A program made the translations under genes and the position numbers. 64,000 nt of DNA from an uncultured Candidatus Saccharibacteria bacterium (GTDB taxonomy: Bacteria; Patescibacteriota; Minisyncoccia; Phycocordibacterales; UBA2100), in contig CAYIDD010000001.1 in assembly GCA_964362175.1 (NCBI GenBank), forward strand, positions 569 to 64,568. Reading direction: 5' to 3'. The notes under the pieces are model-generated. The model searched no databases. It was not told where the DNA came from and saw only the letters and a list, made by a program, of their open reading frames with translations. Position 1 is the stretch's first letter. Every line of letters begins with the position of its first letter. Shown one piece after another: positions 15,269 to 59,007 of this stretch.

Positions 15269-15607
15269 GTGGATAAATGGGTGGTATCATTATCCACAAT
15301 GCTTCGGACAGCACGTCAACGGAAAGAACTCTGCAAAGAATGCCCCGTCGCGCGCGTGGCAAACCTCTTGGGTGACTCATGTTCCCTTCTCATCGTACGA
15401 GACCTGATGGAGAGTCCGCGCCGCTTTGGCGAGATACAAGCATCACTCTCAGGTATAAGTACCCGCACACTCACCAATAAGCTTCGGCAACTGGAAAAAG
15501 AAACGCTGATACGGAGGAAAGACCTCAAATACACGTTGACGAAAAAAGGCGCCGCCTTGCAGGAGATCATCGACGCAATGCGCTCGTACGGCAAGAAATA
15601 TCTTTAA
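15269..15607 (+). CDS. HxlR-family winged-helix transcriptional regulator
   Basis: CPVARVANLLGDSCSLLIVRDL..PRRFGEI...GISTRTLTNKLRQLE is the HxlR signature. Divergent from the FMN reductase gene. Confidence 0.75.
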   Translation: MDKWVVSLSTMLRTARQRKELCKECPVARVANLLGDSCSLLIVRDLMESPRRFGEIQASLSGISTRTLTNKLRQLEKETLIRRKDLKYTLTKKGAALQEIIDAMRSYGKKYL

Positions 15608-15651
15608 ACGGTGCGGGTAACGCCACGGGCTAGACCGCACATGAAAGGGGT

Positions 15652-15673
15652 CGGGAAAACAATTGTTTTCCCG
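15652..15673. repeat. GGGAAAAC..GTTTTCCC palindromic hairpin
   Basis: cgggaaaacaattgttttcccg, a perfect 22-nt palindrome 3' of tRNA-Gly. Confidence 0.6.
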
Positions 15674-15701
15674 TAGAGGAAGGCAGCTCACAACGTGAGC
15701 G

Positions 15702-15723
15702 TTGGAAAACCGTGGGTTTCCAA
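15702..15723. repeat. GGAAAAC..GGTTTCC near-palindromic hairpin
   Basis: ttggaaaaccgtgggtttccaa, immediately 3' of tRNA-Gly. Confidence 0.5.
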
Positions 15724-15727
15724 GAGG

Positions 15728-15798
15728 TGCGGGTACGGAGAATCGAACTCCGATCTAATGCTTGGGAAGCATTCGTTCTGCCACTAAACTATACCCGC
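15728..15798 (-). tRNA. tRNA-Gly (CCC)
   Basis: acceptor GCGGGTA/TACCCGC, anticodon loop TTCCCAA, T-loop TTCGATT. Confidence 0.8.
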
Positions 15799-15848
15799 TT
15801 TGCTGGTTGCACAACAAAATCTAACAGAATTTCCTACCTCAAGCGAGT

Positions 15849-15940
15849 GCGACAGTGACTTGAAGAGTCTCCCGGAGCCGAAGAGGCGAGGATTAAGGAT
15901 CTTTCAGCAGAAAAATCCGGGCTCTGCGAGTCACTGTCGC
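15849..15940 (-). ncRNA. conserved three-stem structured element, copy 1 (unknown function; terminator/insulator or small RNA)
   Basis: 12-bp outer stem gcgacagtgact/agtcactgtcgc encloses a gcc-GAAGA-ggc hairpin and a ggatcttt-CAGCAG-aaaaatcc hairpin. Sits between the ftsB-like stop and tRNA-Gly. Strand assigned from flanking gene orientation only. Confidence 0.45.
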
Positions 15941-15951
15941 CGAGCCCCCCT

Positions 15952-16323
15952 TTACCACCACAAAAACGCACCCCGTATCTTATCAAAGACGGTAGAAGTA
16001 GCCTGCGTGGGCGTCGCCACCGGCTGATCTACGATGACGATGAGTTTCTCGCCTCTCGCTGCAAGTGCGTATTGCTCACGTAGTACCGCCTCAACACCTC
16101 TATCGGTCTGCAGATCGGCGATGTCCTCGTTCAGCTGATCCCGTCGATCTGTGTAGTCTTTCAACTGCGTTTCCGCCTCGATACGAAGTGCCATTGACTC
16201 CCCCTCTTTCCGGTATGCGTTCCACATTCCGAAGGCAAGCACCGAGACCAGCGCAAAGAGCCCAAGCATGAGGAGTCTCCTCCCGAAAACCCGCACTGGG
16301 TCATTCCGTTGCCTGATCGCCAT
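15952..16323 (-). CDS. septum formation initiator (FtsB/DivIC-like)
   Basis: N-terminal TM helix followed by a coiled coil (LRIEAETQLKDYTDRRDQLNEDIADLQ). Start probably at MMAIRQ. Confidence 0.55.
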   Translation of the reverse strand: MAIRQRNDPVRVFGRRLLMLGLFALVSVLAFGMWNAYRKEGESMALRIEAETQLKDYTDRRDQLNEDIADLQTDRGVEAVLREQYALAARGEKLIVIVDQPVATPTQATSTVFDKIRGAFLWW

Positions 16324-16349
16324 CATAGGATATAATCCTACCATTCGTT

Positions 16350-16487
16350 ATGAGTTTCCTTTTTCACAAACGGACCAAGAAGGTCATCAATACCGTTTGG
16401 AGCGTCATCGCCGTGCTCATCATCCTCGGCATGGTCGTGTTCTTTGCGCCAGGACTACCCACGTGGCTCGCAGGCCTCTTCGGCTAA
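16350..16487 (+). CDS. small membrane protein (45 aa)
   Basis: MSFLFHKRTKKVINTVWSVIAVLIILGMVVFFAPGLPTWLAGLFG. TATAAT at 16331. Below the 60-aa cutoff of the ORF track. Confidence 0.35.
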   Translation: MSFLFHKRTKKVINTVWSVIAVLIILGMVVFFAPGLPTWLAGLFG

Positions 16488-16562
16488 CTTTTCCCTCACG
16501 ACCTTCAAAACACCCCGGTACCACAGCGCTTCGCGCTGGCTACGGGGCAGGCCTCGTGCACC

Positions 16563-18353
16563 CTACGTGCCTGCGTCGCGCACTACTTTCAAGAAAACGT
16601 CGTGCGGGATGTCTACTTTTCCCCGCGCGAGCATCTTTTTCTTGCCCCGTTTCTGCTTTTCGCGCAATTTCATCTTTCGCGTGATGTCGCCGCCGTACAG
16701 ATACCCCGTAACGTCCTTGCGCATGGCGGATTTGCGGCGTGACGCAATGATGCGGCCGCCCGCCTTCGCCTGAATTTTCAATTCGAAGAGCTGCCGCGAT
16801 AGGAGCTTTTCCAATTTTTCAACCATCGCCTCCGCTTCGTGCTGGACCCTGCGGCGCGAAACGATACGCGCAAATGCTGGTACGAGTTCTTCGGCGACCA
16901 AAATATCGAGCCGTATCACGTCCGCGGTGCGCATGCCTAAAAGTTCATATGAAAGCGAAGCGAAACCGCTGGAAACACTTTTTAGTTTATCGAAGAACCC
17001 GCGCATCAATTCGCGCAGCGGCATTTCAGAGGCAAGTCGGGTTTTCCCGTCGGGCAGGGTCTCGGTGTCCCCCACGATCGCCTCATGCTCATAAAGAAGT
17101 TGGGTGATATTTCCGAGATATTCGGGGGGTGTGATGACGAACACCTTCGCCCACAGTTCGCGCACTTCTTTTGCTGTTCCGTCGTCGGGAAATCGCGCGG
17201 GGGCGTACACATGTTCAACTTCCCCGTTCGTGCGTACCACCTCATACACCGTGGTGGGCACGGTAACGACGAGCGTGAGCGCGAATTCGCGTCGCAAGCG
17301 CTCCACGACGATCTCAAGATGGAGCATCCCCAAAAAACCGCAACGGAAACCCTTCCCCATGACGCCGGACGATTCCTCTTCGTAAGAAAGTGAGGAGTCG
17401 GAAAGCCGCAGGCGTTCGAGCGATTGCCGCAAAAGCGGGAGGTCGTCCTGACTTTCCGGATACACGCTCGCCCAAATAACGGGAGTGGGGGTACGGTAGC
17501 CAAACAGCGCTTGGCTCGGATTACGTGATGTCGTCACCGTGTCTCCGACCGAGGCGATGCCGGGCTTTTTGATCCCCGTAACCACGTAGCCTATCTCTCC
17601 TTCGACGAGCGCTGGGACTGGTTTTTCCTCAGGCATGAGGACACCGACTTCGAGTGCCGTAAAATCCGCTTTCCCCGCGACGAGTCGCAGAGGATCACCC
17701 TTTGCGATGGACCCCCCGAATATCCGCATGTAGACGATGACGCCCCGATGATCCGAGTAGCCAAAATCGAAAACGAGTGCCTGCACGCCGGATGTTCCGG
17801 ATCGCGGCGGCGGGATCCTCTCAACAATCGCGTTCAACACCGCACCAACGCCCTCACCGGTCTTTCCAGACGCACGCAAAACATCGGACTCGGGACATTT
17901 GAGGAGGAGCGCCAATTCACTCACAATGTCCCCGACGCGTGCATTCGGTGCATCTATTTTCGAGACGATGGGGATGATCTTGAGGTCAAGCTCACGTGCT
18001 ACAGAAAGTACGGAGAGTGTCTGCGCCTCGACACCCTGTGTCGCATCCACCAAAAGCAAGACCCCCTCGACAGCTGAGAGCGCGCGGGAAACTTCGTACG
18101 CAAAATCCACGTGCCCGGGCGTGTCGATCAGGTTGAGGGTGTGCTCGACTCCCTCGTATGCCCAACGCATGCGCACGGGTTGCATCTTGATCGTAATGCC
18201 ACGCTCGCGCTCAAGATCCATCCGATCCAACACCTGTTCCTGCATGCGGCGCGGCTCAATGGTGTGGGTGAGCTCGAGCATCCGATCGGCAAGAGTACTC
18301 TTTCCGTGATCGATATGCGCGATGATAGAAAAATTCCGTATGTGTTCTGTCAT
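16563..18353 (-). CDS. lepA: elongation factor 4 (LepA)
   Basis: NFSIIAHIDHGKSTLADR G-domain, full-length LepA architecture, C-terminal LepA_C. Confidence 0.95.
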   Translation of the reverse strand: MTEHIRNFSIIAHIDHGKSTLADRMLELTHTIEPRRMQEQVLDRMDLERERGITIKMQPVRMRWAYEGVEHTLNLIDTPGHVDFAYEVSRALSAVEGVLLLVDATQGVEAQTLSVLSVARELDLKIIPIVSKIDAPNARVGDIVSELALLLKCPESDVLRASGKTGEGVGAVLNAIVERIPPPRSGTSGVQALVFDFGYSDHRGVIVYMRIFGGSIAKGDPLRLVAGKADFTALEVGVLMPEEKPVPALVEGEIGYVVTGIKKPGIASVGDTVTTSRNPSQALFGYRTPTPVIWASVYPESQDDLPLLRQSLERLRLSDSSLSYEEESSGVMGKGFRCGFLGMLHLEIVVERLRREFALTLVVTVPTTVYEVVRTNGEVEHVYAPARFPDDGTAKEVRELWAKVFVITPPEYLGNITQLLYEHEAIVGDTETLPDGKTRLASEMPLRELMRGFFDKLKSVSSGFASLSYELLGMRTADVIRLDILVAEELVPAFARIVSRRRVQHEAEAMVEKLEKLLSRQLFELKIQAKAGGRIIASRRKSAMRKDVTGYLYGGDITRKMKLREKQKRGKKKMLARGKVDIPHDVFLKVVRDAGT

Positions 18354-18433
18354 ATTATTGCGTCGAGCGAGCGGTATCGCGAAAGCTTGCTTTCATGATC
18401 CGCGAGCGACGACGAAAAAAGTTCCTCATAAAC

Positions 18434-20134
18434 TTATTGCGGACCCGCGGGACTTCCCTCTTCCGCCGAAGCAACGACCGCAACACCGGGGCGAGCCGCT
18501 ATCGGTCTGCGCCAGAGGCGATCATGTATCGCGGAAGCGTTCTCTTTGAATTCCCCATTTCCGAGCATCCAATATACAAAAGCGCAGGCCGCTACGCCAC
18601 ACATGCCCCCCACGAAACCTCTCGTAAAGACCGACAACGTCGTGGATGCAAATGTTATCGGACCAACAGCAATGAGGACGATATAGGTGACCGCACCCCC
18701 GACAAAAGCCGAGAGAGCGCTCTCACCCCACGATCTCCAGACGCTCCGCAAAAAGCCGCCGAAGCGGTGCTCAAAGTGCAGAACGAGGATGAGCGTACTT
18801 ATGACCGCAATGAAAGAGTACGCGAACGCGAGCGTGAGCACACTACTTCCCGGCACACCGGCGACACGCAAGACCTCCTGACTCAATTCCACGAGCCATT
18901 CGTTCTTGAAGAAACCCACCAAGAGGCCGCCGAGCGCTATGGTGCCAAGGGCAGAGAGGCCGGCAACAATGAACGGCACGAAGCTGCGGCCTGCAGCATA
19001 GTATCCGCGAACGAGGAGCAATGTCAGACCCTGACAGACGAGAGAAACGGCGAGAAGCGCGAACGCAGCGGCGGTGAGACGCGTATCCGTCCAGTCAAAC
19101 GCGCCGGAGCCAAGAATAACGCGTACGATGTGTGCGCGTAACACAATGATGAGCGCCGTGATGGGAAGAGACCAGAAAAAAATGTGGCGTGCGGCGGTCG
19201 CGATATGGGACACAAATGCGCTCCGTTCACCGCGCGCTATCGCCGCGGCGAGCGTCGGGAACGCCGCCACGGAGTAAGAAGCACCGACGATGGCAAGTGG
19301 CACCGCTTGCAGGTTGTATGCGAACATAAAGACCGCGATAGAGCCGCTGGTGAGGAACGCTGCGAGCGCCGTAAGTCCGAGGAACGACACTTGATTCATT
19401 GAGAGCGCGAGTGCCCGCGGCACCGAGGTAAAAACCGTTTCAAACAGTACTTTGGTGCCCGTGAAGCGCGGTAATCGGTGGAAAAACCCGTCACCGTAAC
19501 TCGTCGGGATCTGGATGGCGAAATGCATGAACGCACCGAGCACGACGCCGGCGGCAAGGCCTGCGGTTCCCCAGAGCGGATAGAGGAAGAGAACGCCCGC
19601 AATGATGCCGAGGTTGTAGAGGAGCGGCGAGAGCGCATACAGCGCATAGCGTGCACGCACCTGTGTTATCGCGGCAAGGATGTTGGAAAGGCCGAGGAAA
19701 AAGGGTTGCAGGAGCATGATACGCGTAAGAAGGACGAGCTCGCCGTCAGCGGTATTCAATTGCGGAAAAAGGAGGGCAAGAAAAAAAGGCGCGGTAATCG
19801 CCGCGACGACCGAGACTGCCGCGGCAAGAGCCGAGAAACCCACAAGAATGGTATCTATATACGCCCGCTGATCCTCGGGCAACCGTTTCGTTAACTCCGG
19901 GATCAGCACGTACACCGACACGAGCGCGCCCATTGCAACGAAAATAAGATCCGGAATACGGAACGCCGCGTAGTAGAGATCGAGCGTTGCCGAGGCGCCG
20001 AATGCATGCGCCATCAAACGATCCCGAACGAGCGCAAGCAACGATGAGAGAAGCGCGGAAAACGCTAAGATATATACTGCCACATGGAGCCCGCGAACTT
20101 CGTATGAAAGAAATTGGAACGCCCGATTCATCAT
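18434..20134 (-). CDS. murJ: lipid II flippase MurJ (MviN)
   Basis: 566 aa, 14 predicted TM helices, N-terminal motifs typical of MurJ (FGAS..LDLYYAAFRIPDL). Confidence 0.85.
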   Translation of the reverse strand: MMNRAFQFLSYEVRGLHVAVYILAFSALLSSLLALVRDRLMAHAFGASATLDLYYAAFRIPDLIFVAMGALVSVYVLIPELTKRLPEDQRAYIDTILVGFSALAAAVSVVAAITAPFFLALLFPQLNTADGELVLLTRIMLLQPFFLGLSNILAAITQVRARYALYALSPLLYNLGIIAGVLFLYPLWGTAGLAAGVVLGAFMHFAIQIPTSYGDGFFHRLPRFTGTKVLFETVFTSVPRALALSMNQVSFLGLTALAAFLTSGSIAVFMFAYNLQAVPLAIVGASYSVAAFPTLAAAIARGERSAFVSHIATAARHIFFWSLPITALIIVLRAHIVRVILGSGAFDWTDTRLTAAAFALLAVSLVCQGLTLLLVRGYYAAGRSFVPFIVAGLSALGTIALGGLLVGFFKNEWLVELSQEVLRVAGVPGSSVLTLAFAYSFIAVISTLILVLHFEHRFGGFLRSVWRSWGESALSAFVGGAVTYIVLIAVGPITFASTTLSVFTRGFVGGMCGVAACAFVYWMLGNGEFKENASAIHDRLWRRPIAARPGVAVVASAEEGSPAGPQ

Positions 20135-20174
20135 CGTCCGATGCTATCACACTATGCACACACCCGCCGTGAGG

Positions 20175-20525
20175 CGGGCTGTGTGCACTGCTACCTAAGC
20201 CGGATTCTGTCGAGGGCAACCATGTATCTGGGATGAATGTTGCCATTCACCTCAAGCGGCTCTCCTTGGGTGAGATATCCAATTGGTGTATCCCACACAG
20301 GCACGGCTTTGCACAGAGGTAAGAATTTTGCCGTTGCACCCACACCTCTCGATGTGATTATTCCCACCGGGAATCCTTCCCCTTTCGGAGTCGGCGTCAC
20401 TGTTCGCATCTCTCGCCTTGCGGCGGACGGGCGTTACCCGCTACCCTTCTCCGTCTTGCGACGGCTGTGTCCGGACTTTCCTCTATATGCCTTGCGGCAC
20501 ACAGCAGCTGCCTAACGCAGGCTGA
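20175..20525 (-). ncRNA. rnpB: RNase P RNA (bacterial type A-like, reduced P2/P3 region)
   Basis: reverse complement carries GGAAAGUCCGGAC (P4 5' strand), GGUAACGCC (P10/11 region) and ACAGAAUCCGGCUUAG (P4 3' strand). P1 GCUGUGUGC/GCACACAGC. Terminal hairpin cccgcc-gtga-ggcggg at 20163-20178. Ends approximate. Confidence 0.7.
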
Positions 20526-20583
20526 CAAGGTAGCATATTTTCGCTCTTTTCTCAACCAACACCCCAAGAAACTCGTCGAAGGT

Positions 20584-20668
20584 AGGCGCTGGCGGAGACT
20601 CCGCAGGCCGAAGAGGCCGAGGGTTGAGGAATTTTTCAGCAGAAAAATTCCGGTCTCCGCCAGCGCCT
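20584..20668 (-). ncRNA. conserved three-stem structured element, copy 2
   Basis: 16-bp perfect outer stem aggcgctggcggagac/gtctccgccagcgcct, ggcc-GAAGA-ggcc hairpin, ggaattttt-CAGCAG-aaaaattcc hairpin. Sits between the RNR stop and the rnpB promoter. Confidence 0.45.
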
Positions 20669-20687
20669 GCCGAGTAAGAGTTTCACC

Positions 20688-23048
20688 TCAAATAATCTCG
20701 CATGTCCCTCCCGCACACGCCAATTCCTTTGCCTGATCCGTCTCGTCGGTCCGCTCGTAGATGATCAACTTGGAGTAATCGACTGCGGGGAATTTTGCCG
20801 CGAGCTGCTCGTAGGTTTTCTTATCGATGGCCTCGTACGGCGCGAGTCGGTACACGTGATTCTCACGCGGAAGGAACGAGAGGCCGCCGATGATATCCCA
20901 GTTGTCCGAGATCCATGCAACGACTGCCACCCACTCCTCATCGCCGACGGAGATCGTTGCCGACGGATTATGTTCGGTGTAATTCAATTTAACTTTCTTC
21001 CAGTACTCAAGCTGTTCGATCGCGGAAAGATCGTTCTTGAATACAGAACCATTCGGTGCTTTGACCGGAAATTCGAGTACGAAGGTGCTCGCATCGTGCG
21101 CCTGCTGTCCCACCTCGGGATGTGCCTGCACGCCCTGATCGCGCATCATCTTGAAGAGCGAGTCGGTTGCGCTGATACGCACACGACGGATGTAGTACTG
21201 AGAATGACGCGGGTGAATACCTGAAGAGCAATTGAATGTCTGCGAGACCGTGCCCGACGGTTTTACGCACGTGATCGAGCTCGATGCGTTGATGCCGAAG
21301 CGCTTGGCGTACGTCTGGTTTGCTTTTTTGGTCGCTTCGCGCATCTTGCGCATCACTTTTTCATCGCGCACCGCGGGACAATCCCATTGACCCGTGATCG
21401 AGACACCGAGCAGGCGCTCTGCCTGACAATTTTCCTGCCACTCTTTCGAAATGTAGTTGAAGTTGGTCAGTGTTGATTGATACGTGCCCAAAAGCGTTGC
21501 GAGCTTCGCCTTGCGGAGTAACGACACCGGCGTGTCGTCGGCGCGCGCGATGACTTCCGAAAGATTGCAGAACTGTTTTGACTGGAGGATGATCTCGCCG
21601 CATGGATTGGTGCCCACCTGACCGATGAAATTACCTTTCTTGCCGCGTTTCTTTTGAAGGAGTGCGATGCGGCGCTCGGGCATCGTCTTTTCGAGCGACC
21701 CGCGGTTGAATATGCCGCGTTCACCGGTGCCGCTCTTCATGAGTGCCACCCATTCATCCATCAATTCAGCGTTCGATGGTTTCACTTCGTACACGGCGGA
21801 GTTGTTGGCTACCGATCGGTACGGATCCGTGAGGAAGAATTGACCCTTCTTGGCATCACGGATCTCGACATCGTCGAGGTCCGAGAGGCTGATCATCGCG
21901 GTGCGGCGCACGCCGCCGGCTACGACGCACTCGCCTATTTTGCAGATGATGTCGTGAGCGTCGATGTTGCGGAGGCGTCTTCCCTGTCGTCTCAGAATGC
22001 GGTCGCGTGCAAATGCGAGGAGCGAACGCAGCGGTTCCGGACCGGATGCTTTGCCGCCCATCGTCTTGAGTCGGGCACCTGCCGGACGGATCATCGAAAA
22101 ATCAAAATCGACATCTTTACCGGAGTACCACGCTTTGAGACCGAGCGTCAGAGAATCGCACCATCCTTCTTTTGTATCAGCAACAACGTGCGTGCCCAAT
22201 TTTTCTCCCGTCTGTTTTTCTATCTGCGGAAGCTGCTGAACGTTCTGGCTTTCTACCGCGTAGCCCACCCCGCACCCCTGCATGGAGAGATACATTATCT
22301 CTGCAAAATCTTCAAGCTTTACGGGAGCAGTGAACGAACAGTTGTAAAAACACGTATTGCATTTTCTCGCAGGCGCTCCGGCAAACTGCATCGCGCGCAT
22401 ACTTGGCATCACTTCTTGCTTAAGGATCGCTTCGCGAATTTCTGCGTACTCTCTTTTGGTGAGCTTATCGCCGAGATTCTCTTTCATGAATCCAACGTAG
22501 CGCTCGACGGTCTCTATCCATGTCTCGCGGCGCTGCTCACTCTCGATCCAGCGCGCATACGTGCGTAAATAGATAAATTCGCCGAGTGCATTGTTCTTGA
22601 AATACTGCCTGCTCTCCTCGGTGAGCTTTCGCACGTGCTCAGGCACCTCGCCCTGCTCCTTGCGCAGCTTCGAACGCTCGGCACGGTACAGAATATATGC
22701 TTTGGCGGTGCCCACGTAGTCGGAAAGGATGAGTTGGCGCTCGACTTCATCCTGACAACCCTCAACGGTAGGGAGAAAATTCTTGTAGGTCTTTGCGATA
22801 CGCATCATTTCACCTGCAACCTTGTGCGCAACGACGGCCGCCTCGTCGCGCGAGCCCTCATTGGAAGCCGCCATGGCCTTGTGAATGACATTTACGATTT
22901 TTGGGAAATCAAATGGGACGATCCTCCCGTCTCTTTTTTGGATCTGCGACAAATATTTTTTATAGACGCGGATCGCAGAACCATCGTCCGAGGGTACTGT
23001 GGCGACCTTTCCTCTTGCCAAGCGTGCAGTGGCTCTTGTCATGCGCAT
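20688..23048 (-). CDS. nrdJ: adenosylcobalamin-dependent (class II) ribonucleotide reductase with N-terminal ATP-cone
   Basis: 786 aa. ATP-cone (KRDGRIVPFDFPKI). RNR 10-stranded barrel motifs (NPCGEI, CNLSEV). No Fe/tyrosyl R2 gene nearby. Confidence 0.85.
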   Translation of the reverse strand: MRMTRATARLARGKVATVPSDDGSAIRVYKKYLSQIQKRDGRIVPFDFPKIVNVIHKAMAASNEGSRDEAAVVAHKVAGEMMRIAKTYKNFLPTVEGCQDEVERQLILSDYVGTAKAYILYRAERSKLRKEQGEVPEHVRKLTEESRQYFKNNALGEFIYLRTYARWIESEQRRETWIETVERYVGFMKENLGDKLTKREYAEIREAILKQEVMPSMRAMQFAGAPARKCNTCFYNCSFTAPVKLEDFAEIMYLSMQGCGVGYAVESQNVQQLPQIEKQTGEKLGTHVVADTKEGWCDSLTLGLKAWYSGKDVDFDFSMIRPAGARLKTMGGKASGPEPLRSLLAFARDRILRRQGRRLRNIDAHDIICKIGECVVAGGVRRTAMISLSDLDDVEIRDAKKGQFFLTDPYRSVANNSAVYEVKPSNAELMDEWVALMKSGTGERGIFNRGSLEKTMPERRIALLQKKRGKKGNFIGQVGTNPCGEIILQSKQFCNLSEVIARADDTPVSLLRKAKLATLLGTYQSTLTNFNYISKEWQENCQAERLLGVSITGQWDCPAVRDEKVMRKMREATKKANQTYAKRFGINASSSITCVKPSGTVSQTFNCSSGIHPRHSQYYIRRVRISATDSLFKMMRDQGVQAHPEVGQQAHDASTFVLEFPVKAPNGSVFKNDLSAIEQLEYWKKVKLNYTEHNPSATISVGDEEWVAVVAWISDNWDIIGGLSFLPRENHVYRLAPYEAIDKKTYEQLAAKFPAVDYSKLIIYERTDETDQAKELACAGGTCEII

Positions 23049-24212: not shown

Positions 24213-24236
24213 CACGCTTTCTCCCACACAAAGCGG
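24213..24236. repeat. 24-bp direct repeat, left copy (att-like), cacgctttctcccacacaaagcgg
   Basis: identical to 25952-25975, which abuts the 3' end of tRNA-Ser. Confidence 0.8.
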
Positions 24237-24822: not shown

Positions 24823-25767
24823 TCACGAGGCCTTATTTGCACCTTCAAGCTCTTCTTGTTTACTTCGGGCGTAACGATTTAACTCTTGACCTTGATCACT
24901 CAAGTAACCGGCCGTTGAAAAAGCACGCCATATTTTGCCTCGAGCTTCATTCATTTCTTTTAACGTTTGAGCGGTATCGAAAGTGTGTCTGAAGATACCG
25001 TACTCCTTATCCGTAGCGGTTTTTTGCAACTCTCTTCCTTGATAGGACAGACTGCCACCAGGGGTTACGCACAACTGCCATATCTTTGCCTTGATTTTTT
25101 CTAAACCATCAACGGTATTCTCTTCCTCTATCTGTTTTGAGAATATGCCAGCCATATGTTCGTTAGCTGCATGGTACACAATGTCCACAACCGATGAAAC
25201 AATCCGATAGTCGCTATGAATTACTTGATGTATCAGTTCCTTATATTGGTTTCTTAGACTGTCGATCTCTTCGACTGCTTTGATATTGCTAAAACCTTTC
25301 GCAAAAACCGATTTTATTTTCGATTCGAGCACGTCTGCAAGTTGTTTCTCGTTAAATTCGCCTTTGTCGTGCTTACCATACTTTTCATCATTCAAATCTT
25401 TCCGAAGCTTTAAAAGTTCTTCTATATTTTGCGCTGACTGTATTCGTTCGTTCCATGGTCGACTGTCTTTCTCTTCTCGTGGCGGCCATCTACGCTCGGG
25501 CTCACGTAACTGACCAGGAATATATTGTGCTCGCTTTTCGGGATCCTTGAGAGTGGCGTAGGCTTCCGAAACCAATTTCATTTTCTCGGCGTCTCCCCCA
25601 CTTTCCGAGTCGGGATGAAGGTTTTTTGAGATCGTTCTGAAAGCGACAGCAATTTCGGTCTGCGACGCATCGGACGCAACACCGAGTCTCGCATAAAAAT
25701 CAGCAGTAGCTTCGATATGCGGGGTCAAACGATTTTGCTTCGAACTTGGCTCGACCCGCTCTTTCAT
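24823..25767 (-). CDS. J-domain (DnaJ N-terminal domain) protein, no Zn-finger/CTD; low-GC, likely horizontally acquired
   Basis: DFYARLGV..EIAVAFRTISKNLHPDSE..KLVSEAYATLKDPEKRAQY with HPD tripeptide. The rest is a Lys/Glu-rich helical region with no recognisable domain. Confidence 0.6.
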   Translation of the reverse strand: MKERVEPSSKQNRLTPHIEATADFYARLGVASDASQTEIAVAFRTISKNLHPDSESGGDAEKMKLVSEAYATLKDPEKRAQYIPGQLREPERRWPPREEKDSRPWNERIQSAQNIEELLKLRKDLNDEKYGKHDKGEFNEKQLADVLESKIKSVFAKGFSNIKAVEEIDSLRNQYKELIHQVIHSDYRIVSSVVDIVYHAANEHMAGIFSKQIEEENTVDGLEKIKAKIWQLCVTPGGSLSYQGRELQKTATDKEYGIFRHTFDTAQTLKEMNEARGKIWRAFSTAGYLSDQGQELNRYARSKQEELEGANKAS

Positions 25768-25864: not shown

Positions 25865-25896
25865 GCGGAGGCGGAGAGATTCGAACTCTCGGTGCC
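25865..25896 (-). pseudogene. tRNA-Ser 3'-end fragment (32 nt, T-arm + acceptor 3' strand), duplicated att remnant
   Basis: gcggaggcggagagattcgaactctcggtgcc is identical to 25972-26003 of the intact tRNA-Ser. No 5' half is present. Confidence 0.7.
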
Positions 25897-25951: not shown

Positions 25952-25975
25952 CACGCTTTCTCCCACACAAAGCGG
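25952..25975. repeat. 24-bp direct repeat, right copy, overlapping tRNA-Ser 3' end
   Basis: cacgctttctcccacacaaagcgg; the last 3 nt are the tRNA discriminator region. Confidence 0.8.
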
Positions 25976-26057
25976 AGGCGGAGAGATTCGAACTCTCGGT
26001 GCCTTGCGGCACACACGCTTTCCAAGCGTGCGCACTAGACCACTATGCGACGCCTCC
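25973..26057 (-). tRNA. tRNA-Ser (GGA)
   Basis: acceptor GGAGGCG/CGCCTCC, 3-bp D-stem, anticodon stem CACGC/GCGTG with loop TTGGAAA, long variable arm TGCCGCAAGGCA, T-loop TTCGAAT. Confidence 0.8.
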
Positions 26058-49592: not shown

Positions 49593-50645
49593 ATGTTCCA
49601 CTCATTAGAGCGATACACGACAGAGTCCGTAACCTCCGGTCATCCGGATAAAGTGTGCGATCAAATATCAGACGCGATCTTGGATGCCTGCCTCGCACAA
49701 GACCCGAATAGTCGCGTCGCGGTCGAATCATTCGGCAGCCACGGCACACTCATGCTCGGTGGCGAGGTGAAAACGAGCGCGAAAGTAAATTTCGAAAAGA
49801 TCGCACGCAGCGTGTATCGCGATATCGGGTACACTGACACGCTCAAGGTGCTCAATACTATCGCTAGGCAATCCCCCGACATCGCAATGGGCGTCGATAC
49901 CGGCGGCGCGGGAGATCAGGGCATCATGTACGGCTATGCAACGAATGAGACGAAAGAGATGCTCCCGCTCGGAGTCGTCCTCTCACATGCGCTCGCGCGC
50001 CGTCTTGAGAAATTGCGGCGCGACAAAACGCTGAAGTGGCTCAAGCCGGACGGCAAGACGCAGGTCACCATCGCGAATGGAAAAGTTATCACCGCGCTGT
50101 GCTCCACGCAACATGATAAGAAAGTCTCTCAGGAGGAGATCCGCAGGGGGCTCATCAAACATCTCTTCAGGCCGGTCTTGGGCAATTTGAAGGACATCGA
50201 GATCCTCGTAAACCCGACGGGACAATTTATCATCGGCGGCTTCACCGCAGACGCAGGTCTTACGGGCCGCAAGATCATGGTGGATACGTATGGCGGTGTC
50301 ATGCCTCACGGCGGTGGTGCGTTCTCCGGCAAAGACTCGACCAAGGTAGATCGCTCTGCGGCCTACATGTGCCGCTTCGTCGCCAAGAATTTGGTGGCGA
50401 ATGGTTACGCCAAGAAAGCGCTCGTCTCCGTGGCTTATGCCATCGGTCGCATTGAGCCTGTCATGATCGAAGCGTTCGACGAACACGGCAAGAATCTCAC
50501 AAAAATAGTCAGGGAGAACTTCGACTTCCGTCCCCGCGCGATCATCGATCGACTCAATCTCCGCAAACCAATCTTCCGCGAAACAGCCGCCTACGGCCAC
50601 TTCGGTGTGAGTGGTAGACCTTGGGAGAAAATCGTGAAGATTTGA
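49593..50645 (+). CDS. metK: S-adenosylmethionine synthetase
   Basis: GHPDK, GGGAFSGKD and other MetK signatures, full length. Confidence 0.95.
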   Translation: MFHSLERYTTESVTSGHPDKVCDQISDAILDACLAQDPNSRVAVESFGSHGTLMLGGEVKTSAKVNFEKIARSVYRDIGYTDTLKVLNTIARQSPDIAMGVDTGGAGDQGIMYGYATNETKEMLPLGVVLSHALARRLEKLRRDKTLKWLKPDGKTQVTIANGKVITALCSTQHDKKVSQEEIRRGLIKHLFRPVLGNLKDIEILVNPTGQFIIGGFTADAGLTGRKIMVDTYGGVMPHGGGAFSGKDSTKVDRSAAYMCRFVAKNLVANGYAKKALVSVAYAIGRIEPVMIEAFDEHGKNLTKIVRENFDFRPRAIIDRLNLRKPIFRETAAYGHFGVSGRPWEKIVKI

Positions 50646-50722
50646 TCTTCTTGAGCATTGACATCTCTTATTTTTGAGGTACTATTTCCCGAGTTGAAAC
50701 GCTTTAACCGAGAGGTGCTCAC

Positions 50723-51318: not shown

Positions 51319-51593
51319 TTACTCAACAGTGACCGACTTCGCGAGGTTGCGGGGGCGGTCGGGGTTGTAGCCTTTTTCGCGCGAGAAGTAGTAGGAGAAG
51401 AGATGCAGCGGGACGATATTCACTATCGGAGAAAGCATCTCCGTTGTCTTTGGCACATAGATAACGTCGTCGGCAAGCTTTGCGATCTCCGTGTCACCTT
51501 CTGTCGCGACAGCAATGACGTGGCCTTTGCGCGCTTTTATCTGCTGAATGTTGGAGAGCATCTTTTCGTATACGCTGTCATCCGTAGCGATCG
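51319..51593 (-). pseudogene. glmS 3'-terminal fragment (last ~91 codons, no 5' part)
   Basis: 51332-51593 is nucleotide-identical to 53728-53989 of the intact glmS. The last 4 codons and the stop differ synonymously (TAA vs TAG). Confidence 0.85.
51332..51593. repeat. 262-bp perfect direct repeat, copy A
   Basis: identical to 53728-53989. Confidence 0.9.
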
Positions 51594-51760
51594 ACGAACA
51601 CGGCAAGAATCTGACAAAAGTTGTCCGGGAGAACTTCGACTTCCGTCCGCGCGCCATTCAAGACCGCCTCGGCCTCCGCAAACCCATCTTCCGCGAAACC
51701 GCCGCCTACGGTCACTTCGGTGTGAGCGGTAGACCTTGGGAAAAAATAATCAAGATCTAA
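51594..51760 (+). pseudogene. metK 3'-terminal fragment (last 55 codons), diverged copy (~87% nt identity to resident metK 50479-50645)
   Basis: encodes DEHGKNLTKVVRENFDFRPRAIQDRLGLRKPIFRETAAYGHFGVSGRPWEKIIKI. Joined to the glmS fragment at a tcgNcgaac microhomology. Confidence 0.85.
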
Positions 51761-53439
51761 GATTCGCTATTTCCCTCACGGTGGGACCCGACCACTAACG
51801 CAAATACGTTGCCATCCCCTTGAAACTCGGAGTACTTCTCGTCATCAATATTAGGTATATCAATCTCCGTCTGTACAACAGAGTAATCAGCCCCATCCAA
51901 AAATTTATCCGTTGCTTCCCCTATGTAATCGTAATTTGATATCAAAGCCTGTTCAGCATTCACCGAAATCAACGATATCCCCTTTTCTCTCGCCTCAGTT
52001 TCTAACTTAGAAAAGATATTTCGTATCGCGACATCCCAATCAAGCGCGACGGGAATTTGTATGGCATCTAAATGCCAGACTTTCTGTGTCTTGTCATCTT
52101 TTGTTGTTGTCGACAACAGATAGATATTCCCGACATGTTTATTATCAGGATCATATACTTTCACGTTGTAGAGCGGGAGGACAAGGTCGTCAAACGGAAG
52201 AGGGCGCCCGTCCGTGCAGTCACCACTTACGGCCCCAGGATTCCGATCGAGCGTCTCGTCTGGCCTTGCGTCAAGAGTAAATATAGATTTTTTGCCTTCC
52301 ATTCCTCCGTGAACAAGCTGTCGTTGCAGAGATTTGATTTTTCTGTTCAGATACTGCGCAACAGCTTCTGGCCCTAGGAAGAAGGTTGCAACGCCCGCGA
52401 GCAGGCGTTGGTTGAATTCTCGTTTACTCTTGAGTGTTTTGAGTTCGCCGCTCAAAGCTCGTTTTTCTTCGTTCGTGGCGGTCTTCATTCTTTCTCGCAA
52501 TTCGCGCTCCGTGTCCGACGCCAAGGTATGCTCACGAGTCGCATTAAGTGCTTGCGAGATCTGATTGGCATTCAAGAGCTTGTCTGCTGCGCCATGTAAA
52601 TCGTGACGCTCCAGGATCCTTGCGAATAAGCGCTTGCTGATGTCGAAGATATTATTTCCAAACTTTGCCTGTGTCTCATCAGACATTTCGACCGGATAAA
52701 ATAAATCGCCTCCCTGCGGCTGGTTTTCCGTTAGTTTTTGCCAAGACTCTTCTCGATAGAAATCTGGATCCGCCAACTTACCTCGCAGTCGCTCGAGCGA
52801 TTCGTATAGCTCTATTGATGCCTCTCCTGGCCATTTCTCAAAATCATCATCTTCGAAATTGTGCGTGTGCTTTTCTTGGATATCGTGAGGTTTGACCTTT
52901 TCAAACTCTGCGCAACCCTTTCTCACCAAACTCTTCACGCGATCGTAGAATATATCGCCGAGAAATTCATCCAGTTCCTTTGGAGTTACTTGCCCAAGAT
53001 GTTCGAGCATTGCTGGATCTTTGAGCTCTTGCAGGAGAGTGGATAGAGGGCTTCCATCGCCATCTATTTCCTTGATACAAGTTTCAGCTTCAGGGGAGAC
53101 TGCATTTTCCAGTGCTTCTAAGTTACCGAAAAGCAAGTCAACTTCCGAAAAGTCGATACGTCTTCCCATCTTGTTCCCTGATACCTCAAACGAGAGTGTC
53201 TCGAACGGGACATTTTCTTTCTTACGTTCGATTGCTTCCTGTTTTTGTTGTTTTTCTCTTTCGATCTCTCCTATTCTAGATTTTGGAATGATGCGATCGC
53301 CATCTTCGATTCGAGTGTATCCAATTGCCTCCAGGGCTTCGTCGGGGATGTCTCGAATATTCTTGTGTTGGCCCAATAAGTCCTGGATCGTTGGTTGCTT
53401 TTGTCCAGGCGGTCGTACCCTCTCCGGCATGATTTGCAT
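51757..53439 (-). CDS. orphan acidic protein (~560 aa from MQIMPERV; ORF-track frame is 606 aa)
   Basis: long uninterrupted ORF. Its stop overlaps the stop of the metK fragment. TATAAT immediately upstream of the ATG. No recognisable domain. Confidence 0.6.
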   Translation of the reverse strand: MQIMPERVRPPGQKQPTIQDLLGQHKNIRDIPDEALEAIGYTRIEDGDRIIPKSRIGEIEREKQQKQEAIERKKENVPFETLSFEVSGNKMGRRIDFSEVDLLFGNLEALENAVSPEAETCIKEIDGDGSPLSTLLQELKDPAMLEHLGQVTPKELDEFLGDIFYDRVKSLVRKGCAEFEKVKPHDIQEKHTHNFEDDDFEKWPGEASIELYESLERLRGKLADPDFYREESWQKLTENQPQGGDLFYPVEMSDETQAKFGNNIFDISKRLFARILERHDLHGAADKLLNANQISQALNATREHTLASDTERELRERMKTATNEEKRALSGELKTLKSKREFNQRLLAGVATFFLGPEAVAQYLNRKIKSLQRQLVHGGMEGKKSIFTLDARPDETLDRNPGAVSGDCTDGRPLPFDDLVLPLYNVKVYDPDNKHVGNIYLLSTTTKDDKTQKVWHLDAIQIPVALDWDVAIRNIFSKLETEAREKGISLISVNAEQALISNYDYIGEATDKFLDGADYSVVQTEIDIPNIDDEKYSEFQGDGNVFALVVGSHREGNSES

Positions 53440-53465
53440 TATACTCCGGGCTATACTGGAGCACA

Positions 53466-53728
53466 TGGACCTCCTTGAACAACGTGTGCAGAAAATCGAG
53501 CAACGGAACAACTCCGTGGAGATGGATAAGGCTTGGGAAACAAGCTGGACGAGGACAGGGCTCGTCGCCGCATTCACCTACATAACGATGGGTGTTTTTC
53601 TATCATTCATCGACGTCACACGACCGTGGCTCTCGGCGACTGTGCCAACGTTGGGCTTTGTTCTCTCAACGCTCTCGATGCCGTATTTCAAGCGCGCGTG
53701 GGGCCGGAAACGAACTATTCTACGGTAA
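53466..53728 (+). CDS. possible small two-TM membrane protein (87 aa)
   Basis: MDLLEQRVQKIEQRNNSVEMDKAWETSWTRTGLVAAFTYITMGVFLSFIDVTRPWLSATVPTLGFVLSTLSMPYFKRAWGRKRTILR. Overlaps the glmS stop. Confidence 0.25.
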
Positions 53729-55568
53729 CCGACTTCGCGAGGTTGCGGGGGCGGTCGGGGTTGTAGCCTTTTTCGCGCGAGAAGTAGTAGGAGAAGAGAT
53801 GCAGCGGGACGATATTCACTATCGGAGAAAGCATCTCCGTTGTCTTTGGCACATAGATAACGTCGTCGGCAAGCTTTGCGATCTCCGTGTCACCTTCTGT
53901 CGCGACAGCAATGACGTGGCCTTTGCGCGCTTTTATCTGCTGAATGTTGGAGAGCATCTTTTCGTATACGCTGTCATCCGTAGCGATCGCGAACGTCGGG
54001 AAGTTCTCATCTATCATCGCGATCGGTCCGTGCTTCATCTCACCGGCACCGCACCCTTCCGCGTGGATGTACGAAAGCTCCTTCAGCTTGAGCGCACCTT
54101 CGTACGCGATAGGCATGTTGTACTTCCTTCCGATGTACAAAAAATCGCGCACGTGCGCATATTTCCTTGCCAATGCCTCGACCTTCTCCCGCTGATCAAG
54201 AATAGATTGTATCTTCTGAGGCAGAGCCTTCAGTTCACGGGCGACCTCTTTCCCCTCGGCCTCGGACATGCCGCGTTGGCGACCGAGAAAGACCGTAAGC
54301 AGTGCCAGAGCGACAAGTTGCGAGATGAATGCTTTGGTGGAGGCAACGCCGATCTCGGGACCCGCATGATTGTAGACACCCGCATCCGTTTCCCGCGCGA
54401 TCGTGCTCCCCACTGTGTTTACGATGCCGAGCGTGAGGGCCCCATGCCGCCTTCCTTCGCGAAGAGCCTCAAGTGTATCTGCGGTCTCGCCGGATTGCGA
54501 TATGCCGAGCACGATGGTGCGCTCGTTGACGACGGGCTTGCGGTAGCGGAATTCGCTTCCAAGTTCCACTTCAACGGGAATGCCTGCGTGCTCTTCGAGC
54601 ATGTACTCCCCTACCAAGCCCGCGTAATACGCCGTGCCACACGCCACGATGATGATGCGGTCAATTTTTTCTAGCTGCTTCGCGACGCTCTCAAGCCCGC
54701 CGAGTTTCGCAAGACCGGTGTGCGGGATAAGCCGACCACGCAGTGTATTTTCCACCACCTCTGGCCCCTCCATTATTTCTTTCAACATGAAATGTTCGTA
54801 GCCTCCCTTCTGCGCCTCTTCCGCAGTCCAGTCAATATCCGTGGTGTCTCGCTTTACCTTTGAAGAATCCAACTTGAAGATCCTGTGCCCGTCGGGCGAA
54901 ATGACAGCGACATCGCCATCCTCGAGAAAAACGACCTTGCGCGTATGCGGCAGGATGGGCGAGGGGTCGGATGCGATAAAGTGCTCACCGTCGCCGAGTC
55001 CCAACACTATGGGAGAACCCATCCGCGCGGCAATGATGCGGTCAGGCTCTTTTTTATACTGCAGCGCAATGCCGTAGGTACCTCGTACCTCGTTGAGAGC
55101 TGCCAATGCTGCCTCTTCAAATGTTTTCTTTTTTCCTCCGGAGGAGGATCCGCCTTCGGCGGACAAGTGCTCCTCCACGAGATGCGCGAGCACCTCCGTG
55201 TCCGTCGACGATTTGAATTCATGACCGGCCTTCTCGAGCTTACGTTTCAATTCCTTAAAATTCTCGATGATGCCGTTGTGCACTACCCAGATCTCGCCCG
55301 TGGAATCGGAGTGCGGATGTGCATTTGCTTCGGTCGGCTCTCCGTGCGTCGCCCATCGAAGGTGCGCGATACCGCTTTTCCCTTCGAAACCTTTCGGCAT
55401 TTTCTTACGCAATTCGGCGACCGCACCGGGGGTGCGCACACTTCCGCTTTCAGGAGTGTAGATACCCGCAGAGTCGTAACCCCGATATTCGAGCGAAAGA
55501 AGCCCATCCAAAAGGATCCCGCCGGCGTCTTTTCCCCTCTTCCCCGTATACGCAAAAATACCGCACAT
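53715..55568 (-). CDS. glmS: glutamine--fructose-6-phosphate aminotransferase
   Basis: N-terminal MCGIFAY Ntn-hydrolase Cys. Two SIS domains. C-terminal ...KSVTVE. Confidence 0.95.
   Translation of the reverse strand: MCGIFAYTGKRGKDAGGILLDGLLSLEYRGYDSAGIYTPESGSVRTPGAVAELRKKMPKGFEGKSGIAHLRWATHGEPTEANAHPHSDSTGEIWVVHNGIIENFKELKRKLEKAGHEFKSSTDTEVLAHLVEEHLSAEGGSSSGGKKKTFEEAALAALNEVRGTYGIALQYKKEPDRIIAARMGSPIVLGLGDGEHFIASDPSPILPHTRKVVFLEDGDVAVISPDGHRIFKLDSSKVKRDTTDIDWTAEEAQKGGYEHFMLKEIMEGPEVVENTLRGRLIPHTGLAKLGGLESVAKQLEKIDRIIIVACGTAYYAGLVGEYMLEEHAGIPVEVELGSEFRYRKPVVNERTIVLGISQSGETADTLEALREGRRHGALTLGIVNTVGSTIARETDAGVYNHAGPEIGVASTKAFISQLVALALLTVFLGRQRGMSEAEGKEVARELKALPQKIQSILDQREKVEALARKYAHVRDFLYIGRKYNMPIAYEGALKLKELSYIHAEGCGAGEMKHGPIAMIDENFPTFAIATDDSVYEKMLSNIQQIKARKGHVIAVATEGDTEIAKLADDVIYVPKTTEMLSPIVNIVPLHLFSYYFSREKGYNPDRPRNLAKSVTVE
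53728..53989. repeat. 262-bp perfect direct repeat, copy B (within intact glmS 3' end)
   Basis: identical to 51332-51593. Confidence 0.9.
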
Positions 55569-58359: not shown

Positions 58360-59007
58360 TTACCTCCCCGCACTCGGTACCTTCTCCCACTTATTCGCCT
58401 TCATGTGCCATGCCGCTGGACTGGCCTTTTGTATCTTGTTCCACATCTTTTTTGCCGTTTTCGTGTAAAGTTTGGTATCGCGCACGAATTTCCGCATCTT
58501 TTTCCACTTGGCGGGAAGTTTGTGTCCCTGCTCCTCGTATTCTTTCAACTCGATATCGATATCAAGGTTATCCGCGTCTTTCACGATCTTGGCCTCAATG
58601 GAATCGCGCTCTGCATACTTCATGAGCACATTTTCCAGATCGCCAAGCGTTGTGTCCTCGAAAAGGTCGTGTGCAGCACGCGCCTCGTCGCTCTTTGAAT
58701 ACACTTTGTGGACATATGCCATGTCGGCAGTGCGCGTCTCCGCAATATCGTGCACGAGTGCCATCCGGATAATAGTATTCTCGTCGCCTCTTTTTTCCTC
58801 GCGGGCGATCATGAGCGCGAGGTATATAACACGAACGGTGTGTTCCCAATTGCTGGCGACCGGCACCCCAAGGTGTTGTATCCACGCCCGCGGTATAAAA
58901 CGGGCCGAGCCGATCTCAAACAGAAATTCGAGATCACGGCTTTTTCCGCCGAAGACGGATCCGCCTTCGGCGGACACGTGAGATGATCCTTTCCCGACGG
59001 GATCCAT
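58360..59007 (-). CDS. HD-domain phosphohydrolase (YfbR-like 5'-deoxynucleotidase type)
   Basis: H..LVHDIAE..TAD HD motif. Not an HD-GYP. Confidence 0.65.
   Translation of the reverse strand: MDPVGKGSSHVSAEGGSVFGGKSRDLEFLFEIGSARFIPRAWIQHLGVPVASNWEHTVRVIYLALMIAREEKRGDENTIIRMALVHDIAETRTADMAYVHKVYSKSDEARAAHDLFEDTTLGDLENVLMKYAERDSIEAKIVKDADNLDIDIELKEYEEQGHKLPAKWKKMRKFVRDTKLYTKTAKKMWNKIQKASPAAWHMKANKWEKVPSAGR

Follow-up and report, generated by a model that had tools for sequence, protein, structure and literature searches.

The 64,000 nt of DNA analyzed here, referred to as the window (positions 569 to 64,568 of contig CAYIDD010000001.1, assembly GCA_964362175.1, an uncultured Candidatus Saccharibacteria bacterium), originate from a 0.1 µm-filtered Hainich groundwater metagenome and contain two copies of an element with three stems. 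Copy 1 lies between the stop codon of an ftsB-like gene and a tRNA-Gly gene, copy 2 between the stop codon of nrdJ and the RNase P RNA gene rnpB. This arrangement raises the question whether the element is a dedicated signal or RNA of the host, such as a terminator, an insulator, a processing site or a small RNA, as the original prediction had proposed from the two copies, or a repeat that happens to reside there. We favor, with some reservation, the reading that the copies belong to a widespread and uncatalogued family of interspersed palindromic repeats, confined as sampled to Patescibacteria (the candidate phyla radiation, CPR), and that these repeats are non-autonomous and selfish or formerly mobile, similar to the RPE, REP and MITE families as these are generally known. 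We arrive at this reading because the copies are numerous, nested within one another and found as adjacent inverted pairs, because sites are gained and lost, because a copy can reside in frame within a gene and its core can be inverted, and because no gene is associated with them.

Two branched palindromes in the window

Both sites contain the 15-mer TTTCAGCAGAAAAAT together with the 11-mer GCCGAAGAGGC; the two words co-occur nowhere else in the window, and relaxed matches exceeded those of every shuffled sequence. On the + strand both copies fold far better than dinucleotide shuffles, and a covariance model of the family applied to the 64 kb detected copies 1 and 2 alone, the next best hit scoring <15 bits (Table 1). 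On these three grounds the two sites do hold related copies, as had been claimed. Each fold shows the GCC-GAAGA-GGC hairpin (P2) and the A/U-rich second hairpin (P3) that had been described, and the outer stems (P1) of the two copies are indeed unrelated in sequence. The outer stems had been given as 12 or 16 bp. They are long, but the 12 perfect base pairs of copy 1 lie within a 21-bp stem that RNAfold interrupts with one A.G mismatch (15863/15926) and ends with two U.G pairs beside the junction, and copy 2 has 20 bp including one U.G. Copy 2 also reaches beyond the limits first assigned to it (20584-20668), since a further helix, pairing 20568-20574 with 20678-20684, and a 6 × 6 loop (GUCGAA/GAGUAA) enclose its stem; the nrdJ stop codon (20688-20690) lies 3 nt beyond this enlarged element. 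In the predicted fold the 6 × 6 loop looks like a loop E motif (AGUA/GAA).

Two details of the second hairpin had to be corrected. The supposed CAGCAG loop is really an AGCA tetraloop closed by a C-G pair, which covaries with U-A in the family. Further, the change from A:T to T:A that had been read as compensatory depends on the register of the alignment: the P3 stems of the two copies differ by one base pair in length, and an alignment anchored at the loop shows no double change, copy 1 having a C.A mismatch. Covariation in this helix is real in the wider family but is not displayed by the two copies.

Neither copy is followed by a U-tract, in agreement with the original prediction, and a terminator scan was empty at both sites. 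No promoter-like site was found at copy 1 or copy 2 by the promoter scan either. A promoter within the element itself (a −10-like CATAAT formed from the bulged A, with TTGAGA in the arms) was rejected, as partner hexamer and spacing are inconsistent and the scan was empty. Searching positions 15500-21000 with cmscan against Rfam 15 at E up to 10, we obtained no match for the element, the hammerhead, twister, twister-sister, pistol, hatchet, SRP, 6S, Y RNA and 5S families included; eight loci that carry the commonest variant were likewise without a match to it when E was allowed to reach 5. These permissive scans rule out a known RNA family, and in this sense the element is novel, as suggested. 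The reverse complements of copies 1 and 2, which correspond to the mRNA sense, form hairpins of about -44 and -59 kcal/mol.

Structure, favored strand and distribution of the family

To follow the element beyond the window, a pattern scan was applied to genomes, one per species, and returned 33 matches. A full core with flanking complementary arms was present in 12 of them, all in CPR metagenome-assembled genomes (MAGs): Kaiserbacteria, Nomurabacteria (2), Harrisonbacteria, Paceibacterota, one Minisyncoccia MAG (3) and Saccharibacteria (4). The other 21 matches lie in coding sequence without a flanking stem. Among named genomes the element is thus restricted to CPR lineages. A metagenome scan with both loops left free gave 105 loci, and the covariance model detected 106-121 copies in the about 600 kb of loci that were fetched (numbered L, e.g. 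L080); all such counts overstate independence, because the copies are phylogenetically related. A covariance model search had been suggested originally, and with more than 100 found the adverse outcome considered at that time, an element without further copies, did not arise. The flanks of copy 2, AAACTCGTCGAA...GAGTAAGAGTTT, recur in three copies of one Minisyncoccia MAG (L007, L033 and L035). A scan of viral contigs showed no matches to the element, and a phage origin was rejected on this ground. In the part of the literature on CPR/Patescibacteria repeats and RNA motifs that was covered, where an earlier description may have escaped us, the element was not found described, and the family is apparently undescribed.

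Each copy is an imperfect DNA palindrome of 90-150 nt. P1 is a long stem of free sequence, often with a tandem G.A or a loop-E-like internal loop. P2 contains the internal loop GCA/GA and is capped by four or five bases of the form G...R. P3 is A/U-rich, ends in an ANNA tetraloop and frequently has a bulged A, and the bases of the junction are purine-rich. In the metagenome scan the loop of P2 was most often GACUG, followed by the GAAGA of the window, and the loop noted as CAGCAG varied too. RNAalifold, applied to 56 members, returned P2 as three base pairs, the GCA/GA internal loop and GCC/GGC, and P3 as seven or more pairs.

Covariation was tested in a covariance-model alignment of 101 distinct sequences, which, being fitted to the model, favors the modelled structure. 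We observed that 97.8% of the cells were paired, compared to 79.6% in shuffled alignments and 37-57% when the partners were slid. Double changes occurred in 13 of the 14 pairs of P2 and P3 (203 double-change cells vs 45 in shuffles). As the loop-closing C-G of P3 alternates with U-A, the P3 loop is a tetraloop, and in divergent copies the GCC/GGC of P2 is replaced by GCU/AGC, CGC/GCG, GAC/GUC or CCU/AGG. The element is therefore a genuine conserved three-stem structure with variable but complementary outer stems and strong covariation in the family, which bears out the central claim of the original prediction. P1 differs in sequence among copies, yet it remains complementary over 9 to >40 bp. 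Its internal loop often consists of a closing pair, G.A, A.G and a second closing pair, or is of the AGUA/GAA type seen in copy 2. These loops were also considered as target-site duplications; this was rejected, since their strands are often non-identical but keep the closing pairs and the tandem G.A (UGAG/CGAA).

The arms also record which strand folds. Each 5' arm was aligned to the reverse complement of its 3' arm, both strands being treated alike. G.U-type mismatches outnumbered A.C-type mismatches by 147 to 46, and by 96 to 25 when isolated mismatches alone were counted; by sequence, 51 leaned one way and 8 the other. Among the arm transversions more than half were G.A or A.G. This bias indicates that the strand reading CGCAGGCC..., which is the + strand in the window, is favored in a single-stranded fold, either of RNA or of DNA. 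The C.A mismatch in P3 of copy 1 is carried on this favored strand.

Placement, turnover and neighborhood of the copies

For the analysis of placement, genes outside the window and four syntenic loci were mostly called as the longest open reading frame (ORF), a heuristic. On this basis 27 spacers were tandem (20 with the element antisense, 7 sense), 8 convergent and 10 divergent. From these classes it follows that gene 3' ends are not preferred and that orientation is not fixed; the antisense excess in tandem spacers may be real, and is drawn from related copies and heuristic gene calls. In most cases the element takes up the whole spacer, as far as the adjacent stop or start codons. Its orientation is unrelated to GC skew (23 against 21), by which a link to the replication strand was rejected, and an orientation set by open reading frames was rejected because the strands do not differ. 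Of 106 copies, 16 were no more than 250 nt from a tRNA or tmRNA gene, which is about chance, one such gene occurring per 10 kb there. A signal tied to stable-RNA genes was rejected accordingly, and a position between a stop codon and a stable-RNA gene, which had been taken as characteristic, is not a trait of the family. Among 150 neighboring ORF families no Pfam family occurred more than twice, and all were housekeeping. The density is two copies in the 64 kb of the window and reaches four per 8-10 kb in L070 and L080. Eight adjacent pairs were observed, all divergent and each combining two core subtypes. In L067 a 23S rRNA gene is interrupted near model position 2633 by an insertion that contains two of the copies as a pair. 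As a side observation, the same stretch (L067 1-1656; also L058 and L140) contains a weak group I intron match at 1381-1594 after the element pair, and LAGLIDADG endonuclease ORFs occur among the neighbor ORFs that were scanned.

Comparison of syntenic Kaiserbacteria loci revealed gain and loss. Between ftsB and tRNA-Gly the window genome and L144 carry a copy, the site is empty in L146 (57-nt spacer) and L142, and the indel is the entire palindrome, not the core alone. The filled alleles have unrelated but internally matched arms (CGACAGTGACT vs CGGCATGCGCC), and their core subtype differs too. At the nrdJ site the window genome and L146 are filled, and L142 has a plain 18-bp hairpin, which may be what is left of a reduced element or a terminator in its own right. 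The opposite strand of this hairpin (L142 3044-3110) shows a P2-like GCC-N5-GGC in a 16-nt loop. We also considered that the element inserts into the loop of a pre-existing terminator hairpin, which would explain the variable stems. This was rejected, since the empty ftsB allele has no hairpin and the whole palindrome is the indel; the idea survives in part only, given that copies are nested within other palindromes. In such nested copies, observed within one contig, the outer palindrome equals the arm of other copies. Arms of copies on one contig are >95% identical around two different cores, whereas between lineages, and between the two copies of the window, arms are unrelated.

Among about 110 copies a single in-gene site was found, in a protein-coding gene. 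At L080 4785-4900 the copy resides in frame, with a 26-bp stem, inside an intact 477-aa PMT glycosyltransferase ORF whose two Pfam domains are both intact. The insert of ~38 residues is kept in homologues at 85% identity and absent at 55-57% identity. In the 85% orthologue of L148 (about 820-940) the arms align strand for strand, while the ~70-nt core aligns reversed-complement with two or three differences. By these alignments, the core has flipped between its inverted-repeat arms. The arms differ by matched changes (CTTTTG/CAAAAG vs CCCCTG/CAGGGG) and both ORFs are open, so that the two proteins differ in a ~25-residue peptide at the same loop.

The genes next to the window copies are those originally named (ftsB-like, tRNA-Gly, nrdJ and rnpB; Table 1). 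The conserved core lies on the + strand and all four adjoining genes on the - strand, and hence the core is antisense to its flanks. The named relatives nearest to the FtsB-like protein come from Patescibacteria, mostly from Ca. Kaiserbacteria, and the source is a groundwater Patescibacterium close to that group. No RNase P RNA reached the gathering threshold at the corresponding syntenic position of L142 and L146; together with the score of the window rnpB this suggests that CPR RNase P RNAs are divergent.

Table 1. Coordinates of the element, its parts and adjoining genes (window positions unless a locus is given; z-scores against dinucleotide shuffles)
Feature	Position	Strand	Basis and description
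Copy 1, whole element	15843..15945	+	Sequence; fold -52 kcal/mol; z = -5.6; long stem and three-way junction
Copy 1, covariance model match	15860-15930	+	47.4 bits
Copy 1, P1 5' arm	15849..15870	+	RNAfold; partner 15919-15940, 21 bp
Copy 1, P1 3' arm	15919..15940	+	RNAfold
Copy 1, hairpin P2	15872..15891	+	CC/GG base, internal loop GGA/GA, GCC-GAAGA-GGC; fold, covariance model, family covariation
Copy 1, hairpin P3	15897..15918	+	GGAUCUUUC-AGCA-GAAAAAUCC, one C.A mismatch; fold, covariance model, family covariation
Copy 2, whole element	20568..20684	+	Sequence; fold -76.4 kcal/mol; z = -10.2
Copy 2, covariance model match	20589-20662	+	68.9 bits
Copy 2, outermost helix 5' strand GAAACUC and loop strand GUCGAA	20568..20580	+	RNA fold; pairs with or faces 20672-20684
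Copy 2, loop strand GAGUAA and outermost helix 3' strand GAGUUUC	20672..20684	+	RNA fold
Copy 2, P1 5' arm	20581..20600	+	RNAfold; partner 20652-20671, 20 bp including one U.G
Copy 2, P1 3' arm	20652..20671	+	RNAfold
Copy 2, hairpin P2	20601..20622	+	CC/GG base, internal loop GCA/GA, GGCC-GAAGA-GGCC; fold, covariance model, family covariation
Copy 2, hairpin P3	20628..20651	+	GGAAUUUUUC-AGCA-GAAAAAUUCC; fold, covariance model, family covariation
tRNA-Gly(CCC)	15726..15798	-	ARAGORN and Rfam; about 45 nt from copy 1
FtsB/DivIC-like coding sequence	15952..16344	-	ORF; homologues with PF04977; stop codon abuts copy 1
RNase P RNA (rnpB)	20180..20519	-	Rfam RF00010, 113.9 bits vs gathering score 100; about 49 nt from copy 2
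Class II (B12-dependent) ribonucleotide reductase (nrdJ)	20688..23048	-	Pfam ATP-cone, RNR_Alpha, RNR-II_ins_dom; stop codon abuts copy 2
Short-stem subtype, long G+C-rich P3 (GGGGUCGCG...GUGACC), short P1	L027 486-567; L030 5298-5375; L060 10620-10697; L065 3535-3611, 3750-3816; L092 828-905

Several other repeats were noticed. A 24-nt exact direct repeat (window 24213-24236 = 25952-25975) brackets a DnaJ-domain gene (24823-25767, -) beside tRNA-Ser(GGA), and a 32-nt exact copy of the 3' part of this tRNA lies 107 nt away (25865-25896 = 25972-26003); both look like att scars of a small integrated or duplicated segment. Long direct repeats (51320-51593 = 53716-53989, 99%; 50468-50650 ~ 51583-51765, 84%) surround an unannotated 606-aa ORF without Pfam match (51757-53577) between SAM synthetase and GlmS-like genes. 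A 40-nt repeat (88% identical; 55130-55169 and 58941-58980) contains two small hairpins, CCTCCGGAGG and GGATCCGCCTTCGGCGGA, and may be another recurring 3'-end hairpin type of the window genome. Between 4396 and 6232 a 39-43 nt unit (...GTTGGTGATGG.GCAGGT...) occurs four to five times at intervals of about 300-900 nt and probably encodes a repeated protein domain in a large surface protein. Outside the window, at L043 7150-7846, an IS200/RAYT-like Y1 transposase gene has a simple hairpin of its own, TTTTAGTAGTTSAACTACTAAAA, on either side and is interrupted by it once. This CPR-like contig seems to contain a true REP/RAYT-type system, separate from the family described here.

Explanations for the element and their weight

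The reading as a palindromic repeat has analogues on several sides. RPE reportedly resemble the element in several respects: both are palindromic, measure about 100-150 nt, reside in reduced genomes, keep their hairpin potential by matched changes and occupy intergenic DNA, RNA-gene regions and, in frame, intact protein genes (here the PMT gene of L080 and L148); a transposase is known for neither. The element differs by its branched core conserved superphylum-wide, its free arms, its invertible core and its single in-gene site. As it also occurs in a different phylum, membership in RPE-1 to RPE-10 is implausible and RPE serve as an analogue only. With REP, BIME and REPIN sequences it shares abundance as intergenic palindromes, a strand-specific single-strand fold, probable side effects at mRNA 3' ends and, with the eight divergent pairs of two subtypes, clusters in alternating orientation. 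A REP is a simple 20-40 nt hairpin that bears a conserved 5' tetranucleotide, and REPs flank their RAYT gene; the element, in contrast, measures 90-150 nt, has a three-way junction and lacks a short unbranched REP form. An association with RAYT was rejected, since no Y1_Tnp gene is among the neighbors of about 100 copies and the single one found, in L043, is flanked by different hairpins.

MITE-like repeats (Correia, ERIC, BOX and bcr1) are likewise non-autonomous, interspersed and about 100-150 nt long; their transcripts fold into long hairpins and can alter stability or termination of neighboring mRNAs. In MITEs the terminal inverted repeats are conserved and a target-site duplication is usual; the element, by contrast, has termini that differ from lineage to lineage around a conserved centre. 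The original prediction had asked whether the motif represents terminal inverted repeats of a known MITE family, and no such family could be identified; an autonomous insertion sequence with the same ends was not found among the neighbor ORFs, and viral contigs gave no match to the element. Intrinsic terminators share the G+C-rich hairpin right after the ftsB and nrdJ stop codons, but the element has no U-tract, carries a conserved 50-nt branch at its apex and occurs also in divergent spacers and in a gene. Intervening sequences of 23S rRNA genes resemble the L067 pair, whose long stems would suit excision by RNase III; their classical sites are helices 25 and 45, whereas the L067 insertion is elsewhere and is followed by the intron match mentioned above.

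Compared to such repeats two features are unusual, namely a branched, covarying centre that extends over the superphylum and arms that are free in sequence. The strand-specific fold suggests that a single-stranded form is recognized by something, and the fold of one strand, as transcript or single-stranded DNA, may be bound by a trans-acting factor that copies or keeps the element. Complementarity of the arms could be maintained by selection, by arm-to-arm gene conversion or by both, and such conversion may be linked to the core inversions. In the window, the modelled reverse-complement hairpins directly 3' of the ftsB and nrdJ stop codons would probably serve as 3'-end hairpins that stabilize or end these mRNAs, and they might separate both transcripts from the promoters of tRNA-Gly and rnpB. 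A terminator or insulator effect is thus plausible as a side effect at these two copies, while their closeness to stable-RNA genes would be coincidental.

Several findings weigh against a selfish or formerly mobile repeat. Conservation of the core between CPR lineages at class level is about 85-90%, a degree uncommon among selfish repeats and in keeping with a function in the host or with a host partner that is itself conserved. Orthologous sites retain copies with matched arm changes. Local functions are hinted at twice: in Kaiserbacteria each of the six copies runs antisense to the gene whose stop codon it adjoins, and in five of six cases the short-stem subtype, which differs in this from other members of the family, is found on the same strand as a tRNA or tmRNA gene, 13-60 nt downstream of it. 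No consistent target-site duplication was seen at the syntenic ftsB and nrdJ sites or in same-contig copies; CTCG is present on both flanks of the ftsB site in two genomes, yet both motifs pre-exist in the empty site. Neither a transposase nor recent identical copies at unrelated sites were demonstrated. Finally, the strand contrast is weak within the core, where G.U and A.C mismatches number only 13 to 7.

An unlikely alternative is that the element is a cis-acting RNA of the host, i.e. a factor-dependent terminator, an insulator or a processing or stabilizing hairpin that punctuates compact CPR transcripts, with the junction binding a conserved host protein. Besides the deep, covarying core, the copies kept at orthologous sites, the same-strand short-stem copies and the six of six Kaiserbacteria copies that follow a stop codon, this explanation can draw on spacers wholly filled by copies abutting stop codons, on the plain 18-bp hairpin that L142 has instead at the nrdJ site and on canonical hairpin-plus-U terminators not being enriched in the window region. 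It is difficult to reconcile with the lack of a U-tract and with 10 divergent compared to 8 convergent spacers, including pairs of copies between divergent genes. Orientation varies, the better-folding strand being antisense to neighbors about 2:1; close relatives have empty orthologous sites, and a copy resides inside a coding gene with its core inverted in the orthologue. A dedicated terminator, insulator or small RNA gene does not match this behavior, which is that of an interspersed, probably selfish, palindromic repeat.

It appears improbable that the element is a structured RNA with its own activity present in many copies, either a small RNA binding a conserved partner or a new class of small self-cleaving ribozyme. 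Junction and loop bases are conserved while the helices vary and covary, and the arms show the strand-specific G.U and G.A pattern. The absence of gene association together with many copies per genome is a profile typical of known self-cleaving ribozymes, and the long P1 stems would be RNase III substrates able to free the core. However, promoter-like and terminator-like signals are absent at the copies, the stems reach the neighboring stop or start codons and leave no space for a transcription unit, Rfam ribozyme and small RNA families gave no match at E up to 10, and inversion of the core is tolerated.

Very improbable is a single-stranded DNA recombination substrate, either REP-like hairpins that a RAYT or IS200-type Y1 transposase would move or folded sites of an attC-type tyrosine recombinase: a strand-specific fold would suit it, as DNA hairpins tolerate G.T and tandem G.A too, adjacent copies alternate in orientation as in BIMEs, and a CPR Y1 transposase exists (L043 7171-7815, PF01797 E = 1e-8), but this gene is flanked by its own simple 10-bp hairpins and not by the element, none of about 100 copies adjoins a Y1 gene, orientation does not follow GC skew, the element is branched and 3-4 times the length of a REP, and by inspection its variable ends lack the R''/R' boxes of attC (RYYYAAC ... 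GTTRRRY), with housekeeping neighbors instead of cassette arrays.

A palindromic repeat of this kind matters for CPR bacteria, which account for a large share of bacterial diversity and whose non-coding DNA has hardly been annotated. With as many as one copy per 2-3 kb the family would be a major unannotated feature of their genomes. It makes spurious ORFs and misleads gene calling, as was evident in several of the loci examined, and it is able to reside in proteins and in rRNA gene insertions. Its apparent tie to tRNA-Gly and rnpB in the window should not be over-read. The family also lends itself to studying how palindromic repeats are maintained, namely by matched changes in the arms and by inversion of the core. 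Should the core be bound by a conserved factor, this would point to an unknown piece of CPR nucleic-acid biology. We regard it as a long shot, of about the same weight as a host signal, that a repeat spanning the CPR superphylum carries, in its conserved three-way junction, a new class of functional RNA, acting as a self-cleaving or processing ribozyme or as the docking site of a CPR-specific protein that organizes transcript ends; if so, the invertible core would make its action switchable, including within coding genes.

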